From: Eledone cirrhosa
Taxonomy: Eukaryota
Length of the DNA stretch: 64,000 bases
Direction: 5' to 3'
Assembly (NCBI GenBank): GCA_964016885.1
Contig: OZ024743.1
Location: forward strand, 330,584,001-330,648,000
Below the pieces are notes generated by a model that saw nothing but the letters and a program-made list of their open reading frames with translations, searched no databases and was not told where the DNA came from. Made by a program: the position numbers and the translations under genes. This document shows positions 10,668 through 64,000 of this stretch, piece by piece. How positions within the stretch are numbered: the stretch's first letter is position 1; every line of letters begins with the position of its first letter.

Positions 10668-12528
10668 ATCTCTGGGCTACCTATGGGCTCTAGTCTGTCC
10701 GGCATACTTGCTGCGATCTCGTACATGGACCACCTGGAACGCAAGGCACTCAATACCTGCCAACCCAACGCCGTCGCCTTCTACTCCAGATACGTTGATG
10801 ACATCCTGATACTCACTTCTTCCCGGGAATGACATTCACCAAATCTTCAACGATACTGACCATCACGTCGATTTCACCATCGAACACCCAGGAGAAGACG
10901 GGTCACTCGCCCTCCTCGACTTCCGTATCAACATCTCGGAAGAAGGAGACATAAACACCACCTTCTACCGCAAAGCAGCGTGCAAGGACTTATTTGTGCA
11001 TTACAACTCAGCCCTCCCCAACAACGCTAAGAGAGGCTATGTCCTAAATGAACTGACACGTATCACTAACAGATGCAGCGACCCGATGGGTGGTCTCACC
11101 CATACCACGCAATTCCGTAATCTACTCAGGTCTAATGGATATCCCAAGCGACTGATTAACGGAATTAGAGACCCCAGACCCAATAGACAGACACCCACTA
11201 GAAACTCAAATAAAAGCAGGTGCTTCTTTAAAATCCCCCACCTGAGTGAATATACCACGAACGCCATCCGCAGGGCCATACGGACGGAGGGACTTGACAT
11301 ACATTTGGCCCACACAGGACCTTCGCTGCGAAGATGCCTCTCCAACAAACCCGACGAGTCAGATGGGACGTGTTCCCCCAGCAACTGCCCGATACGGGGG
11401 GCAGATTGCCTACGCACCTATGTCGTATATAAGATTCAATGCGATAAATGTAACAAGTTTTACATAGGTAGCACCATCCGACCCCTACATGTTCGTATCA
11501 AGGAACATGTCAACACCAACGCATCTTCCTTCCGTAAACACATCCTTAAATGCGGAAACCCACAGGGTAGACCCTTGGTCACAGTCCTAGCGACTGAACG
11601 CAGCATCGGATCCTTAAGGATAAAGGAAGCACTTGTTATTAAGAACCTCAGACCCCCACTTAACAACCGGGCTGAGAGAAATGAGCTGACATGGCTAACT
11701 TAACCATAGTGACCATTCACAGCCCTTACGGCCTGCTATTTTCACACACACGCACGTATATGCATACCCATACGCATACACACACACATCTATATTTATA
11801 CACGCACACATGTTTTTACAACCTACCACCTTTCACACCCTTTGATTTCCAGCTTCTACAGCCCACTATCTTTCGCACACACACGCACACATACACACAC
11901 ACAGTTACACACACATGTATACCCATACGCTTACACACACACATGTTTATACACGCACACATGTTTTACAACCTACCACCTTTCACACCCTATGATTTCC
12001 AGCTTCTACAGCCCACTATCTTTCACACACACTCACACATATACACACTTACACATATACACACACAGTTACACACACATATATATTTACACACATATAT
12101 TTTACGGCTTTCAAACGCTAGCGCACCCTCTTGATTTAACCCATTTGGTCAGTAGCTTTTGCCACAGCCTATCACGCGCACGCGCATTCTTTCCCCCATT
12201 TAAATTTTAAATAATTTTTCTCCCCATAACGGCATTCCTGTTTTAACGACATCACAACTTTCTCCGCTTAGCCTCTTCCCCCCGCCCCCCTTTGGAACTT
12301 TCCCCCGTTGATGGGCGTGAGCCCGAAATATTGGGATTAAATCTCCACTACGGTAACCCTTCTACCTTTGTTTTGTTTTCATCTTTGTCTCTCTCTATTT
12401 TCACTTTCTCCTATTTCTCTTATCTATCATTCACCTCCTACCTCGAGATTTCCCTCTGCATTGTTGTGGCTTTCTAAACTACGTATTTTACACATTTCAC
12501 AATGCTTCAAGCAAACTTTAACACCCTC
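10668..12528 (+). mobile_element. 5'-truncated Penelope-like element (RT C-half, GIY-YIG endonuclease, 3' pLTR) in (TA)n
   Basis: GLPMGSSLSGILA, FYSRYVDDIL and FYRK motifs at 10670-10990 (frameshifted); ORF 10996-11703 has VVYKIQCDKCNKFYIGSTIRPLHVRIKEH..KEALVIK..PPLN. Confidence 0.92.
12302..12335 (+). ncRNA. Degenerate minimal type I hammerhead ribozyme in the PLE pLTR
   Basis: CCC-CCGTTGA-T-GGGC(GTGA)GCCC-GAA-ATAT-T-GGG; stems intact, two substitutions in the CUGANGA box. Confidence 0.65.
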
Positions 12529-15736: not shown

Positions 15737-16363
15737 ATGAAAAACAAGGGGAGAAGAATACTGCATGGTTGCACATGGATTACATATTATAAAATTAGTC
15801 CCTCATCAGTGATTTGCCAACCATCATTGGTATTTCATCGCATTAAAAATCAGATACCTCAGGTTGGTGCGAGCTGGTGCGAACTAAAATAAGCTATTGG
15901 GACAAGTGAAACGCGTAAAGCGAGTGAGACAAGTAAACAACAGAAGGAAAAGCAAACCGAAGGTTGGGAAAACAGCAAGCCACATGATAGTTATCCGATC
16001 AGCATAAGCTGGGTGAATTTCATGAGCATGTCAGAGAAGCAGACCGTACGCCGCGAATGCGGTGTGAGAAAGAAGGAACCCTACTACTAGCGAACGGGAG
16101 GAAGTGAAAAGGGGAGAAACAGAGAGTGAGTGAGTGGAAGTGCGAGGAAGAGGTCAGTCGAGAGAAAGTGTTAACTGACAGAGGGGACGAAAGAAGGTAA
16201 GAGAAACAGAGATAACGGGGGAGCAGTAAGAGAGAAAGAGAGAAACAGATAATCGCAGTTTAGGTAAATATATATGAAAAACAAGGGGAGAAGAATACTG
16301 CATGGTTGCACATGGATTACATATTATAAAATTCGTCCGTTATCAGTGATTTGCCAACCATCA
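15737..16363 (-). mobile_element. About 536-bp unit plus partial direct repeat; diverged relative of the 494-bp repeat at 56325-58090
   Basis: ATGAAAAACAAGGGGAGAAGAATACTGC repeated at about 15737 and 16274; shares CTCACTCGCTTTACGCGTTTCA, GGCAAATCACTGATGAGGGACT and other blocks with the 56-kb unit. Confidence 0.8.
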
Positions 16364-16689
16364 TATATGTTATAAAATATATATATATTGTGTATAAAAC
16401 TATGGATTATATACAAGTTGCTACATAACCTGGACATTATTTATCCCAAATTGTAGAAATCTTATAACGAAACGGCCGTCTGGAAGGAAAGAGATATTTA
16501 TTTATGTCTCATATAAAATAATACAACCAGCTATCCACGAAATACTGATTAGTTAGCACCCCAAACACTAAATAGGGATATTACTTAAGTATATCCTAAT
16601 GTTTGTTGAGTGAGATGGAGTTGGTCGGAGTATCGCTTAAGGCTTTCTCTGTTAATGTATTAAATATATATATATATGAGGAGTACTGG

Positions 16690-31588: not shown

Positions 31589-32697
31589 AATATGGTCGAC
31601 TATTGAGGCACCCTCAATATGGTCGACTATCGAGGCACCCTCAATATGGTCGACTATTGAGGCACCCTCAATATGGTTGACTATTGAGGCACCCTCAATA
31701 TGGTTGACTATTGAGGCACCCTCAATATGGTCGACTATTGAGGCACCCTCAATGTGGTCGACTATTGAGGCACCCTCAATATGGTCGACTATCGAGGCAC
31801 CCTCAATATGGTCGACTATTGAGGCACCCTCAATATGGTCGACTATCGAGGCACCCTCAATATGGTCGACTATCGAGGCACCCTCAATATGGTCGACTAT
31901 TGAGGCACCCTCAATATGGTCGACTATCGAGGCACCCTCAATATGGTCGACTATTGAGGCACCCTCAATATGGTCGACTATCGAGGCACCCTCAATATGG
32001 TCGACTATCGAGGCACCCTCAATATGGTCGACTATTGAGGCACCCTCAATATGGTCGACTATCGAGGCACCCTCAATATGGTCGACTATCGAGGCACCCT
32101 CAATATGGTCGACTATTGAGGCACCCTCAATATGGTCGACTATCGAGGCACCCTCAATATGGTCGACTATCGAGGCACCCTCAATATGGTCGACTATTGA
32201 GGCACCCTCAATATGGTCGACTATCGAGGCACCCTCAATATGGTCGACTATTGAGGCACCCTCAATATGGTCGACTATCGAGGCACCCTCAATATGGTTG
32301 ACTATTGAGGCACCCTCAATATGGTCGACTATTGAGGCACCCTCAATATGGTCGACTATTGAGGCACCCTCAATATGGTCGACTTTGAGGCACCCTCAAT
32401 ATGGTCGACTATCGAGGCACCCTCAATATGGTCGACTATCGAGGCACCCTCAATATGGTCGACTATTGAGGCACCCTCAATATAGTTGACTATTGAGGCA
32501 CCCTCAATATGGTTGACTATTGAGGCCCCCTCAATATAGTTGACTATTGAGGCACCCTCAATATGGTTGACTATTGAGGCACCCTCAATATGGTTGACTA
32601 TGGAGGCACCTTCAATATTGTTGACTATCGAGGCACCCTCAATATGGTCGAATATGGAGGCACCCTCAATATTGTTGACTATCGAGGCACCCTCAAT
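31589..32697. repeat. 27-bp minisatellite, about 41 copies (AATATGGTCGACTATYGAGGCACCCTC)
   Basis: Direct reading; no spacers between units. Confidence 0.97.
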
Positions 32698-33959: not shown

Positions 33960-36900
33960 CGTTAATCAACTCAAATGTCTAACTGTAATAACACCAAGAA
34001 GGTGGACATTTTGTCACACTGGATGGCGGAAGACTAAATTGAATTGATGATTTTCTATATTTGGGCAGCTGGATGAGTTCATCATAAAAGGACATTGACA
34101 TTATAGTTTCCAAAGTCTGGGCTACAGTGAACAAAATGGTAAGGATATGGAAGTCAGATCTTCCCCAAAAAATCAAAATATTATTCTTCAGGACATCTGT
34201 TGAGTCAGTATTATTGTATGGATCAAGTACATGGAACCTGACACAGGTACTTGAGTCAGTATTATTGTATGGATCAAGTACATGGAACCTGACACAGGTA
34301 CTTGAGTCAGTATTGTTGTATGGATCAGGAACATGGACCCTGACACAGGTACTTGAGTCAGTATTGTTGTATAGATCAGGTACATGGAACCTGACACAGG
34401 TACTTGAGTCAGTATTGTTGTATGGATCAAGTACATGGAACCTGACACAGGTACTTGAGTCAGTATTATTGTATGGATCAAGTACATGGAACCTGACACA
34501 GGTACTTGAGTCAGTATTATTGTATGGATCAAGTACATGGAACCTGACACAGGTACTTGAGTCAGTATTGTTGTATGGATCAGGAACATGGACCCTGACA
34601 CAGGTACTTGAGTCAGTATTGTTGTATAGATCAGGTACATGGAACCTGACACAGGTACTTGAGTCAGTATTGTTGTATGGATCAAGTACATGGAACCTGA
34701 CACAGGTACTTGAGTCAGTATTATTGTATGGATCAAGTACATGGAACCTGACACAGGTACTTGAGTCAGTATTATTGTATGGATCAAGTACATGGAACCT
34801 GACACAGGTACTTGAGTCAGTATTGTTGTATGGATCAGGAACATGGACCCTGACACAGGTACTTGAGTCAGTATTATTGTATAGATCAGGTACATGGAAC
34901 CTGACACAGGTACTTGAGTCAGTATTGTTGTATGGATCAGGAACATGGACCCTGATACAGGTACTTGAGTCAGTATTGTTGTATAGATCAGGTACATGGA
35001 CCCTGACACAGGTACTTGAGTCAGTATTATTGTATAGATCAGGTACATGGACCCTGACACAGGTACTTGAGTCAGTATTGTTGTATGGATGAGGTACATG
35101 GACCCTGACACAGGTACTTGAGTCAGTATTGTTGTATGGATCAGGTACATGGACCCAGACGCAGGCACTTGAGTCAGTATTGTTGTATGGATCAGGTACA
35201 TAGAACCTGACACAGGTACTTGAGTCAGTATTATTGTATGGATCAGGTACATGGACCCTGACACAGTCACTTGAGTCAGTATTGTTGTATGGATCAGGTA
35301 CATGGACCCTGACACAGGCACTTGAGTCAGTATTGTTGTATGGATCAGGTACATGGAGGCTGACACAGGCACTTGAGTCAGTATTGTTGTATGGATCAGG
35401 TACATGGACCCTGACACAGGCACTTGAGTCAGTATTGTTGTATGGATCAGGTACATGGAGGCTGACACAGGCACTTGAGTCAGTATTGTTGTATGGATCA
35501 GGTACATGAATCCTGACACAGGCACTTGAGTCAGTATTGTTGTATGGATCAGGTACATGGACCCTGACACAGGCACTTGAGTCAGTATTGTTGTATGGAT
35601 CAGGTACATGGACCCTGACACAGGCACTTGAGTCTGTATTGTTGTATGGATCAGGTACATTGACCCTGACACAGGCACTTGAGTCAGTATTGTTGTATGG
35701 ATCAGGTACATGGAACCTGACACAGTCACTTGAGTCAGTATTGTTGTATGGATCAAGTACATGGACCCTGACACAGCCACTTGAGTCAGTATTGTTGTAT
35801 GGATCAGGTACATGGAGGCTGACTCAGGCACTTGAGTCAGTAGTATTGTATGGATCAAGTACATGGACCCTGACACAGGTACTTGAGTCAGTATTGTTGT
35901 ATGGATCAGGTACATCGACCCTGACACAGGTACTTGAGTCAGTATTATTGTATGGATCAGGTACATGGACCCTGACTCAGGCACTTGAGTCAGTAGTATT
36001 GTATGGATCAAGTACATGGACCCTGACACAGGTACTTGAGTCAGTATTGTTGTATGGATCAGGTACATCGACCCTGACACAGGTACTTGAGTCAGTATTA
36101 TTGTATGGATCAGGTACATGGAGGCTGACACAGGCACTTGAGTCAGTATTGTTGTATGGATCAGGTACATGGACCCTGACACAGGCACTTGAGTCAGTAT
36201 TGTTGTATGGATCAGGTACATGGAGGCTGACACAGGCACTTGAGTCAGTATTGTTGTATGGATCAGGTACATGAATCCTGACACAGGCACTTGAGTCAGT
36301 ATTGTTGTATGGATCAGGTACATGGACCCTGACACAGGCACTTGAGTCAGTATTGTTGTATGGATCAGGTACATGGACCCTGACACAGGCACTTGAGTCT
36401 GTATTGTTGTATGGATCAGGTACATGGACCCTGACACAGGCACTTGAGTCAGTATTGTTGTATGGATCAGGTACATGGAACCTGACACAGTCACTTGAGT
36501 CAGTATTGTTGTATGGATCAGGTACATGGACCCTGACTCAGGCACTTGAGTCAGTAGTATTGTATGGATCAAGTACATGGACCCTGACACAGGTACTTGA
36601 GTCAGTATTGTTGTATGGATCAGGTACATCGACCCTGACACAGGTACTTGAGTCAGTATTATTGTATGGATCAGGTACATGGAGGCTGACACAGGCACTT
36701 GAGTCAGTATTGTTGTATGGATCAGGTACATGGACCCTGACACAGGTACTTGAGTCAGTATTGTTGTATGGATCAGGTACATCGACCCTGACACAGGTAC
36801 TTGAGTCAGTATTATTGTATGGATCAGGTACATGGAGGCTGACACAGGCACTTGAGTCAGTATTGTTGTATGGATCAGGTACATGGACCCTGACACAGGT

Positions 36901-38320
36901 ACTTGAGTCAGTATTGTTGTATGGATCAGGTACATCGACCCTGACACAGGTACTTGAGTCAGTATTGTTGTATGGATCAGGTACATCGACCCTGACACAG
37001 GTACTTGAGTCAGTATTATTGTATGGATCAGGTACATGGAACCTGATACAGGTACTTGAGTCAGTATTATTGTATGGATCAGGTACATGGACCCTGACAC
37101 AGGTACTTGAGTCAGTATTGTTGTATGGATCAGGTACATGGAGGCTGACACAGGCACTTGAGTCAGTATTGTATGGATCAGGTACATGGAACCTGACACA
37201 GGCACTTGAGTCAGTATTGTTGTATGGATCAGGTACATGGACCCTGACACAGGCACTTGAGTCAGTATTGTTGTATGGATCAGGTACATGGACCCTGACA
37301 CAGGTACTTGAGTTAGTATTGTTGTGTGGATCAGGTACATCGACCCTGACACAGGTACTTGAGTCAGTATTGTTGTATGGATCAGGTACATGGACCCTGA
37401 CACAGGCACTTGAGTCAGTATTGTTGTATGGATCAGGTACATGGAACCTGACACAGGCACTTGAGTCAGTATTGTTGTATGGATCAGGTACATGAACCCT
37501 GACAAAGACACTTGAGTCAGTAGTGTTGTATGGATCAGGTACATGAACCCTGACACAGGCACTTGAGTCAGTATTGTTGTATGGATCAGGTACATGGACC
37601 CTGACACAGGCACTTGAGTCAGTATTGTTGTATGGATCAGGTACATGAACCCTGACAAAGACACTTGAGTCAGTAGTGTTGTATGGATCAGGTATATGGA
37701 CCCTGACACAGGTACTTGAGTCAGTATTGTTGTATGGATCAGGTACATGGACCCTGACACAGGCACTTGAGTCAGTATTGTTGTATGGATCAGGTACATG
37801 GACCCTGACACAGGCACTTGAGTCAGTATTGTTGTATGGATCAGGTACATGAACCCTGACAAAGACACTTGAGTCAGTATTGTTGTATGGATCAGGTACA
37901 TGGACCCTGACACAGGCACTTGAGAAGAAACTAGATGGTGACACACTAAAATGCTAAGGTTGTACAAAACATAACCTGGCGTCAACTGATTACAAATGAA
38001 ACTTCATACAGAGACTTGCCCAAGATAACAACTACAATTGCTCAAAGACAGTTATGATTATCAGGACATTGCTGGAGAAGTAAGCAGGAAGTTATACACA
38101 AGCTACTGTTGTGGGAACCAACTCAGGAAGTTATATACAAGCTACTATTGAGGGAACCAACTCACAGGAGAAGCAGTAGAGGAAGACCTGCTCAAACCTT
38201 CATCGATCAACTCTCAGACGACACAGGCATCAGTATGGAGCAGTTTCCAGGAGCAATGGAAAATCGGGAATCATGGAGAGATTTTGTCAGGAATGTTCGA
38301 CTGTGGACACAATGATGATG
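33960..38320 (+). mobile_element. RTE-clade LINE 3' fragment containing an internal 51-bp tandem expansion
   Basis: DDFLYLGSW, IWKSDLPQKIKILFFRTSVESVLLYGS before the array; LEKKLDG, GHCWR, LLLWEPT, GRPAQTFIDQL..ENRESWR and (TGA)n tail after it. Confidence 0.9.
34200..37925. repeat. 51-bp minisatellite, about 73 copies, derived from RTE coding sequence
   Basis: Unit TTGAGTCAGTATTGTTGTATGGATCAGGTACATGGACCCTGACACAGGYAC = ESVLLYGSGTWTLTQ(V/A)L. Confidence 0.97.
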
Positions 38321-56117: not shown

Positions 56118-56258
56118 GGTAAAAATACACCACACAGAAATAATTTAAAGATTATTTTTTCTTTAATCCAACAGAATAAATAATATTATAATTGTTTCAT
56201 TAAATGTAATCGGTGTTGATTGACTTAACAATCTTATCAAATATTAGATATTAAATGT

Positions 56259-56302
<44 letters not shown>

Positions 56303-56324
56303 ACATTTAATATCTAATATTTGA

Positions 56325-58086
56325 TAAACGCGCTCATATATTCACCTAGCTTATGCTAAACAGAATAATTTTTGAAGCTTGTTTCTTTCCCCTACGGTTA
56401 GCTATACTCTTTGTTGTTCTCCTGTCTCACTCGCTTTACACGTTTCAATTGTCCTAATAACTTATTTTGGTTATTATTGCACCGACGTGAGGTATATGAT
56501 TTTTAATGCAATGAAATATCTATGATCGTCGGCAAATCACTGATGAGGGACTCATTTTATTACATGTTATCCATGTGCTACCTGCAGTATTTTTCTCTAT
56601 ATTTTATTACATATATTTACCACTGCGATTCTGTGTTTTTTTCTCTCTCTCTCTTACTGTTCCCCCATTCTCGCTGCTTCTCCCCCTCTGTCATGTCAGT
56701 TAACTCTTTCTCACACTTTCACTCACTCACTGTTTCTCTTCTCTTCATTTCATCCTGTACACCACGAAGGCTATTTTTCTCTCTTCTCACATAGCCTTCG
56801 CTCGTGTCGGGTCTGTTCTAAACGCGCTCATATATTCACCTAGCTTATGCTAAACAGAATAATTTTTGAAGCTTGTTTCTTTCCCCTACGGTTAGCTATA
56901 CTCTTTGTTGTTCTTCTGTCTCACTCGCTTTACGCGTTTCAATTGTCCTAATAACTTATTTTGGTTATTATTGCACCGACGTGAGGTATATGATTTTTAA
57001 TGCAATGAAATATCTATGATCGTCGGCAAATCACTGATGAGGGACTCATTTTATTACATGTTATCCATGTGCTACCTGCAGTATTTTTCTCTATATTTTA
57101 TTACATATATTTACCACTGCGATTCTGTGTTTTTTTCTCTCTCTCTCTTACTGTTCCCCCATTCTCGCTGCTTCTCCCCCTCTGTCATGTCAGTTAACTC
57201 TTTCTCACACTTTCACTCACTCACTGTTTCTCTTCTCTTCATTTCATCCTGTACACCACGAAGGCTATTTTTCTCTCTTCTCACATAGCCTTCGCTCGTG
57301 TCGGGTCTGTTCTAAACGCGCTCATATATTCACCTAGCTTATGCTAAACAGAATAATTTTTGAAGCTTGTTTCTTTCCCCTACGGTTAGCTATACTCTTT
57401 GTTGTTCTCCTGTCTCACTCGCTTTACGCGTTTCAATTGTCCTAATAACTTATTTTGGTTATTATTGCACCGACGTGAGGTATATGATTTTTAATGCAAT
57501 GAAATATCTATGATCGTCGGCAAATCACTGATGAGGGACTCATTTTATTACATGTTATCCATGTGCTACCTGCAGTATTTTTCTCTATAATTTATTACAT
57601 ATATTTACCACTGCGATTCTGTGTTTTTTTCTCTCTCTCTCTTACTGTTCCCCCATTCTCGCTGCTTCTCCCCCTCTGTCATGTCAGTTAACTCTTTCTC
57701 ACACTTTCACTCACTCACTGTTTCTCTTCTCTTCATTTCATCCTGTACACCACGAAGGCTATTTTTCTCTCTTCTCACATAGCCTTCGCTCGTGTCGGGT
57801 CTGTTCTAAACGCGCTCATATATTCACCTAGCTTATGCTAAACAGAATAATTTTTGAAGCTTGTTTCTTTCCCCTACGGTTAGCTATACTCTTTGTTGTT
57901 CTCCTGTCTCACTCGCTTTACGCGTTTCAATTGTCCTAATAACTTATTTTGGTTATTATTGCACCGACGTGAGGTATATGATTTTTAATGCAATGAAATA
58001 TCTATGATCGTCGGCAAATCACTGATGAGGGACTCATTTTATTACATGTTATCCATGTGCTACCTGCAGTATTTTTCTCTATATTT

Positions 58087-58090
<4 letters not shown>
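56325..58090 (+). repeat. 494-bp tandem repeat, about 3.6 near-identical copies, ending at (TA)n
   Basis: Identical ORFs at 56522 and 57016; CCGACGTGAGG at 56482, 56976, 57470 and 57964. Confidence 0.97.
56482..56532 (+). ncRNA. Kink-turn stem-loop (one per 494-bp unit; homologue on minus strand at 15817-15867)
   Basis: CCGACG-T-GA-GGTAT..ATATC-TAT-GA-T-CGTCGG versus CCAACC-T-GA-GGTAT..ATACC-AAT-GA-T-GGTTGG; two compensatory pairs. Confidence 0.65.
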
Positions 58091-58136
<46 letters not shown>

Positions 58137-58141
<5 letters not shown>

Positions 58142-58312
58142 AACCAGTAAGACCCCGACAGCTGAGCTCAAGCCGTTTCCAGAATTAGCCGTCGAAACAG
58201 CTTGAGCTCAGCTGTCGGGGTCTTACTGGTTCCTATTACCCACTCTACTACCTCAATTATTGAGTACTTTGGTGCGTTATGGTCCACCTGGTTCCTTACC
58301 ACTTTTCCTTCG

Positions 58313-62109: not shown

Positions 62110-63091
<982 letters not shown>

Positions 63092-63182
63092 AACACACAT
63101 GCACTGATACTCTCTCTGTCTGTCTCTCTCTTTCTCCTTCACTTTCTAACATACATATTCACCCCCCCTCCTCACTGTCTTT

Positions 63183-64000
63183 CACACACACATACACAGA
63201 CAGAGGTAGCCACACACACACACACAGACAGAGGTAGCCACACACACACACACAGACAGAGGTAGCCACAGACACACACACAGACAGAGGTAGCCACATA
63301 CACACAGACAGACAGAGGTAGCCACACACACACAGACAGACAGAGGTAGCCACACACACACACACAGACAGAGGTAGCCACACACACACACACAGACAGA
63401 GGTAGCCACATACACACAGACAGACAGAGGTAGCCACACACACACAGACAGACAGAGGTAGCCACACACACACACACAGACAGAGGTAGCCACACACACA
63501 CAGACAGACAGAGGTAGCCACACACACACAGACAGACAGAGGTAGCCACACACACACACACAGACAGAGGTAGCCACACACACACAGACAGACAGAGGTA
63601 GCCACACACACACAGACAGAGGTAGCTACACACACATACACAGACAGATGTAGCCACACACACACACACAGACAGAGGTAGCCACATAGACACAGACAGA
63701 CAGAGGTAGCCACACACACACACACAGACAGAGGTAGCCACACACACACACACAGACAGAGGTAGCCACACACACACAGACAGACAGAGGTAGCCACACA
63801 CACACACACAGACAGACAGAGGTAGCCACACACACACAGACACAGACAGAGGTAGCCACACACACACAGACAGACAGAGGTAGCCACACACACACAGACA
63901 GACAGAGGTAGCCACACACACACATACACAGACAGAGGTAGCCACACACACACACACAGACAGAGGTAGCCACACACACACAGATAGACAGAGGTAGCCA
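63183..64000. repeat. About 28-bp minisatellite (GAGGTAGC(CA)n(CAGA)n), runs off the window
   Basis: GAGGTAGC at 63203, 63231, 63259 and onward. Confidence 0.95.

Follow-up and report, generated by a model that had tools for sequence, protein, structure and literature searches.

The window analysed here comprises 64,000 nucleotides of the genome of Eledone cirrhosa (contig OZ024743.1), which has a size of 3.0 Gb and is rich in microsatellites. It contains a tandem array of repeat units and an insertion of a second subfamily in the opposite orientation (Table 1). The units of the array vary at only 2 positions, and the longest ATG frames of the unit encode 90 aa on the plus strand and 25 aa on the minus strand. 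Searching the genome with the stem I and core pattern of the motif described below gave 6,728 matches, compared to 0 for the reversed control. At least 40 genome copies are identical to the window motif over 111 nt, which suggests that the repeat family is young. Long perfect palindromes adjoin the array (58140-58215 and 56120-56330), and many loci have comparable fold-back segments beside their (TA)n runs (L004, L206, L207). Further repeats in the window are two minisatellites, 51 bp x 73 (34200-37924) and 27 bp x 41 (31589-32697), and an AC-rich short repeat at its end (63000-64000).

Table 1. Repeat insertions, predicted ribozyme motifs and structural elements in the window
Feature	Position	Strand	Remarks
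Tandem array, 494-bp units x 3.6	56326-58101	+	Non-coding, retrozyme-like, (TA)n at 3'-end
Second-subfamily insertion, one unit and partial unit	15751-16371	-	(TA)-rich flanks, approx. 79% identical
Predicted permuted hammerhead ribozyme, copy 1, whole cage	56476-56546	+
Predicted ribozyme, copy 2	56970-57040	+	Predicted cut after 56990
Predicted ribozyme, copy 3	57464-57534	+	Predicted cut after 57484
Predicted ribozyme, copy 4	57958-58028	+	Predicted cut after 57978; array end approx. 115 nt on
Complete predicted ribozyme cage, second subfamily	15803-15873	-	N17 = C
5'-truncated motif without blocks S and G	16330-16371	-	G8 of core changed; predicted inactive
Stem II 5' strand (X)	56476-56481	+	Upstream of K-turn; pseudoknot with 56507-56512
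K-turn non-bulged strand and NC helix 5' strand	56482-56490	+	NC helix strand 56482-56487; 3n U, 2n G, 1n A
Block S	56491-56502	+	Stem III/C-helix 5' strand (U16.1 = 56495), N17 = 56496, stem I 5' strand 56497-56502
Block G	56507-56520	+	Stem II 3' strand (11.1 = U56512), GAAA 56513-56516, stem III 3' strand 56516-56520
K-turn bulged strand	56521-56532	+	3-nt bulge, G1b A2b U3b, NC helix 3' strand
Block C	56534-56546	+	Stem I 3' strand 56534-56539, CUGAnGA core 56540-56546

The K-turn hairpin of the repeat unit

The initial annotation of this locus described the segment 56482-56532 (+) as a canonical kink-turn (K-turn) showing covariation with a homologue at 15817-15867 (-). This reading is borne out by our analysis. 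Exactly 8 positions distinguish the two segments (56484, 56487, 56496, 56510, 56519, 56521, 56527, and 56530). Two compensatory pairs are found at 56484/56530 (G-C vs. A-U) and 56487/56527 (G-C vs. C-G), and the difference at 56519 results in G.U in one copy and G-C in the other. The segment contains a C-helix, a 3-nt bulge, tandem G.A (1b.1n) and A.G (2b.2n) pairs, U.U, and a 6-bp NC helix, as standard K-turns do, and both helices covary. Three differences had been regarded as unpaired. One of these, 56510, pairs and covaries with 56478 outside the segment, and 56496 is N17, the cleavage nucleotide of the motif described below. That the RNA corresponds to the plus strand is supported by four pair positions at which G.U but never A.C occurs, and the proposed setting in a non-autonomous mobile tandem repeat with non-coding units likewise agrees with our data.

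Conservation of the K-turn was assessed in a set of 80 distinct, ungapped and non-truncated copies, referred to as family A. Both GA dinucleotides, on whose conservation the initial reading depended, are present in 72 of these copies. In the bulged strand, 1b is G in 76 and 2b is A in 79 copies. The 3b.3n pair is U.U in 44, C.U in 18, A.G in 9, U.G in 3, and other in 6 copies, whereas G-C or G-U, towards which U4 K-turns are biased (PMC4382518), occurs in none of the 80. Hence, the label "U4-type" given to this K-turn was abandoned. At 4b.4n, G:C is found in 43 copies and at -1b.-1n, C:G is found in 76. An Rfam search of the window yielded no match at the gathering score; a local search yielded 7 weak matches, the best with an E-value of 2.8, none of them a ribozyme although the threshold extended to E 10. 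On the basis of this result, the block order, the pairing, and the absence of a U4-type 3b.3n pair, identity with a box C/D snoRNA or U4 snRNA was rejected.

A permuted hammerhead around the K-turn was missed in the initial annotation. Its CUGAUGA (56540-56546), standing eight bases 3' of the K-turn hairpin, and its pseudoknot partners lie just outside the segment described.

Core, wiring and covariation of the predicted hammerhead

GAAA (56513-56516) is located in the loop of the K-turn hairpin, and its last A pairs with U56495 on top of the C-helix, which is followed by A56496. Judged from these letters, the 51-nt hairpin appears to represent an extended stem III within a hammerhead fold, with the C-helix as stem III, and a cut is predicted between 56496 and 56497. 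Cleavage site, GAAA, and CUGAnGA follow one another in the non-circular order S, G, C. The chain is open just after CUGAnGA, the partner strand of stem II being situated upstream, and block C is thus split. A hammerhead of type I, II or III was rejected, because these need the circular orders CGS, GSC or SCG, and Rfam gave no hammerhead match. HDV-like and SECIS readings were dropped after inspection by eye. For a helix that would close the motif by joining the strand following CUGAnGA to the one preceding X, only partial pairing was found. A rod-like circle was not seen in minimum free energy folding, which cannot show pseudoknots (circular MFE -81.0 vs. -66.7 +/- 5.0 in 30 shuffles).

Stems I, II and III lie around the core. 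CUGAnGA, GAAA, U16.1-A15.1, and an N17 other than G are all kept in 67 of the 80 distinct copies. U16.1 is found in every copy, N17 is A in 66 and C in 14 but never G, and N7 is U in 66, C in 12, and A in 2 copies. Variation of the core is confined to N7 and N17, positions that a hammerhead leaves free. The weak point of the hammerhead assignment is position 11.1. This position normally is a C, and the G10.1-C11.1 pair is lacking in family A, in which 72 of 80 copies have U at 11.1. In 45 copies the X strand has C opposite this U, so that the 10.1-11.1 pair would have to use the base after CUGAnGA (A-U in 37, G.U in 35). C11.1 is present in the families B and C and in the REL copies described below.

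The order S, G, C is known from the SGC (HRIMA-1) hammerheads, non-circularly permuted ribozymes that were found only in metatranscriptomes and cleave in vitro (Eckert et al. 2023, PMC10085705). According to this report, they share with our motif the block order, a short linker between stems I and II, and a helix bridging these stems, one strand of which precedes the 3' strand of stem I. In contrast, their stem II directly follows CUGAnGA and their ends are open at stem III, whereas in the repeat one strand of stem II lies upstream and the K-turn connects both strands of the bridging helix with stem III. Within the NC helix of the repeat, the 3' strand is located before stem I and the 5' strand after the strand of stem II. 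By position, the NC helix probably corresponds to the bridging helix of the SGC ribozymes, and the motif can be read as an SGC fold with a new opening just behind CUGAnGA, in which the K-turn provides the closure at stem III. It would work like an SGC hammerhead but stand outside the published class, since block C is split. As given in PMC10085705, the SGC descriptors require CGAAA and stem II after the core and would therefore miss the repeat motif. The geometry of the bridging junction is named there as the one SGC feature not obviously compatible with the hammerhead structure and is left unexplained, and the term "kink" does not occur in the text or supplement as accessible. By analogy, a K-turn, which bends helices at an included angle of approx. 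50 degrees (PMC5061560), would supply the turn needed at this junction.

Covariation was analysed in 32 rows, hand-picked as subfamily representatives from 83 distinct copies; two of the rows lack the X strand. The four crossing helices (I, II, III, and NC) were paired in 98.2% of 664 cells, compared to at most 46% in slid controls. Double changes were found in 8 of 21 pairs, and none of the four helices lacks them. Covariation of the helices over collected copies, which the initial annotation had left to be checked, was thus found, in counts that include related copies, ignore kinship and carry no phylogeny correction. Stem I was 100% paired with 3 double-change pairs and covaries across subfamilies; stems III and II were paired to 97.5% and 96.7%. 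Among the 80 distinct copies, 56478/56510 is C-G in 57, U-A in 19, and other in 4. Thirty loci (L056-L085) were picked by core and stem I letters, which makes the conservation of these letters there partly circular; the K-turn letters were outside the pattern.

A descriptor of cleavage site, GAAA and CUGAnGA without K-turn letters matched 5 times in the window and not once in 100 shuffles. From loci matching a loose pattern, a strict descriptor passed 12 of 30 in the genome and 16 of 55 in metagenomes, and 0 of 80 among the viral matches listed. We are highly confident that the fold is real.

Other carriers of the fold and anatomy of the insertions

A generic pattern matched 938 times in this genome, compared to 11 times in the control, and yielded two further families with the same knotted cage. 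Family B (L147-L176, L197) is old and degenerate and has the cage with K-turn. Family C (L178-L205), with a unit of approx. 753 bp, has kept the cage, with a K-turn in 0 of 8 rows; the GA of its bulged strand is Watson-Crick paired, resulting in a plain bulge or loop. Head-to-head inverted copies were observed in this family (L180/L181, L201). Family D (L198/L211/L213) and the loci L207, L210 and L212 are further repeats with the cage or parts of it.

The cage was also found directly 3' of RT/REL ORFs in this genome (L208, L209, L222-L251). These copies have A at 2n and a canonical K-turn in 0 of 9 cases. The closest listed relatives of the ORFs are RT proteins of fish and lancelet, including Q7T1J8_TETNG and Q76IN2_TAKRU, which we take to belong to the clades named HERO and Zebulon. 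Like the repeat, these non-LTR retrotransposons have the cage with a similar stem I, in their case just after the ORF. They differ in being autonomous, in having one motif each and C11.1, and, in L208 and L209, in the absence of (TA)n at the 3'-end.

Of 55 loci in metagenome contigs, 17 could be parsed into the cage motif, among them loci with RT/REL elements (e.g. L253, L299, L302). Of the others, 3 were incomplete, 5 remained unparsed, and 30 were dropped for a mismatch in the context of stem II. The GA of the non-bulged strand, which was absent from the search pattern, is present in 14 of the 17 parsed copies. Together with two copies of our own, these show 96.2% pairing in the four helices and double changes in 6 of 22 pairs, none of them in stem II.

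Naiads, a group of Penelope-like elements (PLEs), were reported to lack canonical hammerheads, with 8 "half core" cases including Naiad_Ovul (PMC8557442). In the sequences of the supplement to this report, inspection by eye revealed the same cage with a canonical K-turn at the 3'-ends of Naiad_Obim and Naiad_Ovul. Further tails, three plus two, have a cage with a bulge, and one has a nearly continuous helix; in the tail of Naiad_Esco the cage was not seen. In the section of the same supplement that contains nematode elements, several Naiad tails read by eye as CUGAnGA first and GAAA later, and one as CSG order. Judged from these sequences, Naiads may hold several hammerhead permutations.

What is constant across the families is a join at the site of the K-turn, which usually is bent, and the K-turn is the commonest solution. 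The bend looks architectural, since in some families the cage is kept although the K-turn is absent.

The insertions of the repeat have fixed 3'-ends and variable 5'-ends. In L001-L085, the distance from the cut site to the array 3'-end is 90-129 nt in 57 of 59 cases, the end being at a (TA)n or (CT)n run, and 31 further motifs run on into another unit. Arrays comprise up to six or more units, inverted 5' copies occur (L007, L063), and most insertions read through the predicted cut site. The (TA)n target together with tandem and inverted 5'-truncated copies is the pattern described for Naiads (Craig et al. 2021, PMC8557442), although Naiads encode EN-RT whereas the repeat is non-coding. By analogy, this anatomy is as expected from a PLE that targets (TA)n and acts by target-primed reverse transcription, and it also matches the model of cut, circularised, and re-copied units proposed for retrozymes (PMC7229834; bioRxiv 10.64898/2026.07.22.740005). 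Genomic 5' junctions fall on the cut site in 73 cases. Counted by hand against control sites 20 nt downstream, the two subfamily types disagree, with 37 vs. 6 junctions in one and 36 vs. 36 in the other.

Searching for an autonomous partner with matching ends gave no candidate in this genome, and no Naiad ORF was found beside any motif. For this purpose 150 GIY-YIG matches were scored, of which the top 30 had the endonuclease at the end of the ORF. PLE fragments near repeat copies were rejected as partner, being separate insertions. Cephalopod Naiads are described as long inactive (Craig et al. 2021, PMC8557442), and another PLE clade may therefore be the mover. PLEs with a C-terminal GIY-YIG domain are abundant in the genome (10,596 candidates; L117-L146, L002, L010, L052, L078). 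By eye they are Neptune-like and Hydra-like and represent candidate mobilisers, and some have hammerhead cores of ordinary order nearby (L127, L139, L143, L146). The window itself contains a Penelope-like RT-thumb/GIY-YIG fragment at 10810-11700 (+), in which PF01541 scores just at the cut-off. It also contains a 594-nt inverted repeat (13313-13906/14279-14872, 96% complementary) with a GIY-YIG-like peptide inside, which looks like an inverted PLE copy.

Interpretation and relation to known systems

Core letters, four crossing helices, K-turn, thousands of copies, fixed 3'-ends at (TA)n, and variable 5'-ends form the sequence and covariation basis of our interpretation. The K-turn probably is the bend in stem III of an SGC-order hammerhead fold that self-cleaves after 56496 once per 494-nt unit, and the repeat is likely a retrozyme. 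According to this model, the K-turn would fold the extended stem III back, bringing the NC helix to the distal ends of stems I and II. These ends and the bent stem III would form a second three-way junction, which may do the job of the tertiary contact between stems I and II. Read-through transcripts would be cleaved into single units, which probably become circular by ligation. Reverse transcription of the units would be due to a Penelope-like element that targets (TA)n, Naiad-type to judge from its motif, and would start at a fixed site approx. 115 nt past the cut, giving rise to tandem insertions with truncated 5'-ends. The K-turn may be bound by host 15.5K, although the data can be explained without it.

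Poor or absent cleavage in family A is an unlikely alternative, in which the hammerhead fold is kept, likely as an RNA shape recognised by a retroelement protein. It would account for the frequent U at 11.1 and for 5'-ends that show no consistent excess at the cut site, and it is in line with the in vitro insertion of uncleaved RNA by PAc, hammerhead cleavage of a Poseidon PLE being reported as dispensable for insertion in vitro (PMC11167929). It does not explain why all catalytic letters are kept with only N7 and N17 varying, and C11.1 is found in families B and C and in the REL copies. Read-through insertions are also predicted from ligated circles under the published retrozyme model (PMC7229834).

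Alternatively, strands of neighbouring tandem units might pair in trans to form a dimeric hammerhead, in which case the knotted single-unit cage would not form. Pairing in cis and in trans between identical units cannot be distinguished by covariation, and dimer-dependent hammerheads are described for axolotl retrozymes (PMC7229834). However, the motif occurs as a single copy after RT/REL ORFs and in Naiad tails, its linkers and helix lengths are short and fixed across families, fitting one compact fold, and monomeric SGC ribozymes are reported to cleave (PMC10085705). Hence, we consider dimer formation improbable.

A further proposal is that the K-turn mainly recruits a host protein of the L7Ae family (15.5K) for protection or transport, with the hammerhead letters being secondary. 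Likeness to box C/D K-turns and Kt-7 (PMC4382518, PMC5689011) comprises the 3-nt bulge, G.A/A.G and C:G at -1. At 3b.3n, U.U is box C/D-like and A.G is Kt-7-like. Canonical bulge and GA/GA are found in 72 of 80 copies, and U.U at 3b.3n together with G:C at 4b.4n resembles the protein-needing K-turns of box C/D RNAs; moreover, L7Ae folds even K-turns that ions cannot fold (PMC4382518). On the other hand, C:G at -1 would, by the published rules, favour folding in ions alone, and by the same rules protein-free folding is possible for 33 of the 80 copies of family A, owing to 3b=C or 3n=G (PMC4382518, PMC5689011). The window copy is mixed, combining ion-folding and box C/D-like letters. In addition, families without a canonical K-turn (0/8 in family C, 0/9 in the REL copies) have kept the cage, and recruitment of a protein leaves core and pseudoknots unexplained. 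A role mainly in L7Ae recruitment is therefore very unlikely. By analogy to other standard K-turns, binding of 15.5K to the repeat is plausible, whereas a requirement for this protein is not supported.

DNA-level hairpin conversion as the cause of the covariation, with no RNA structure under selection, is already contradicted and has next to no probability. Although insertion does produce inverted segments (L007, L063), the covariation extends over three mutually crossing sets of helices, more than a single DNA hairpin can account for. The GA/GA and the bulge, which are not complementary, have been kept and have escaped conversion, wobbles appear as G.U on one strand, and the layout recurs in unrelated families whose stem sequences differ.

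As a self-cleaving retrozyme, the repeat would join the metazoan non-LTR retrozymes (PMC7229834; bioRxiv 10.64898/2026.07.22.740005), with which it shares non-coding AT-rich tandem units with one hammerhead each, dispersed in thousands of copies with a PLE-like insertion pattern. As described in these reports, those hammerheads are of type I and were found by type I descriptors, in contrast to the SGC order seen here, and circRNA was shown for some of them. A survey of titles, abstracts and term counts that included few subscription journals revealed no publication in which a K-turn is connected with a hammerhead, or hammerheads of SGC order with animal retroelements.

The wider proposal is that this motif represents a fourth hammerhead wiring, a closed cage of two junctions with split block C, overlooked in many Naiads, in HERO-type elements and in their retrozymes throughout animals, and that in the K-turn-bearing families host 15.5K folds the bend and gates cleavage. 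Taken as a whole, this is speculative and rather doubtful. If the motif cleaves, non-circularly permuted hammerheads, so far described from metatranscriptome RNAs, would be present in an animal genome thousands of times, and the assumption that CUGAnGA and stem II are inseparable would break down. Cleavage would also offer an explanation of how stem III and the bridging helix of SGC ribozymes can be connected (PMC10085705) and of why Naiads seem hammerhead-free yet show half cores (PMC8557442), and it would place a hammerhead in the 3'-UTR of a restriction-like-endonuclease retrotransposon. Retrozymes would then be undercounted by type I descriptors. With a K-turn built into a small ribozyme, an RNA of 90 nt would suffice to test whether a protein controls cleavage, and if 15.5K gates cleavage, the repeat would constitute a natural protein-switched ribozyme.
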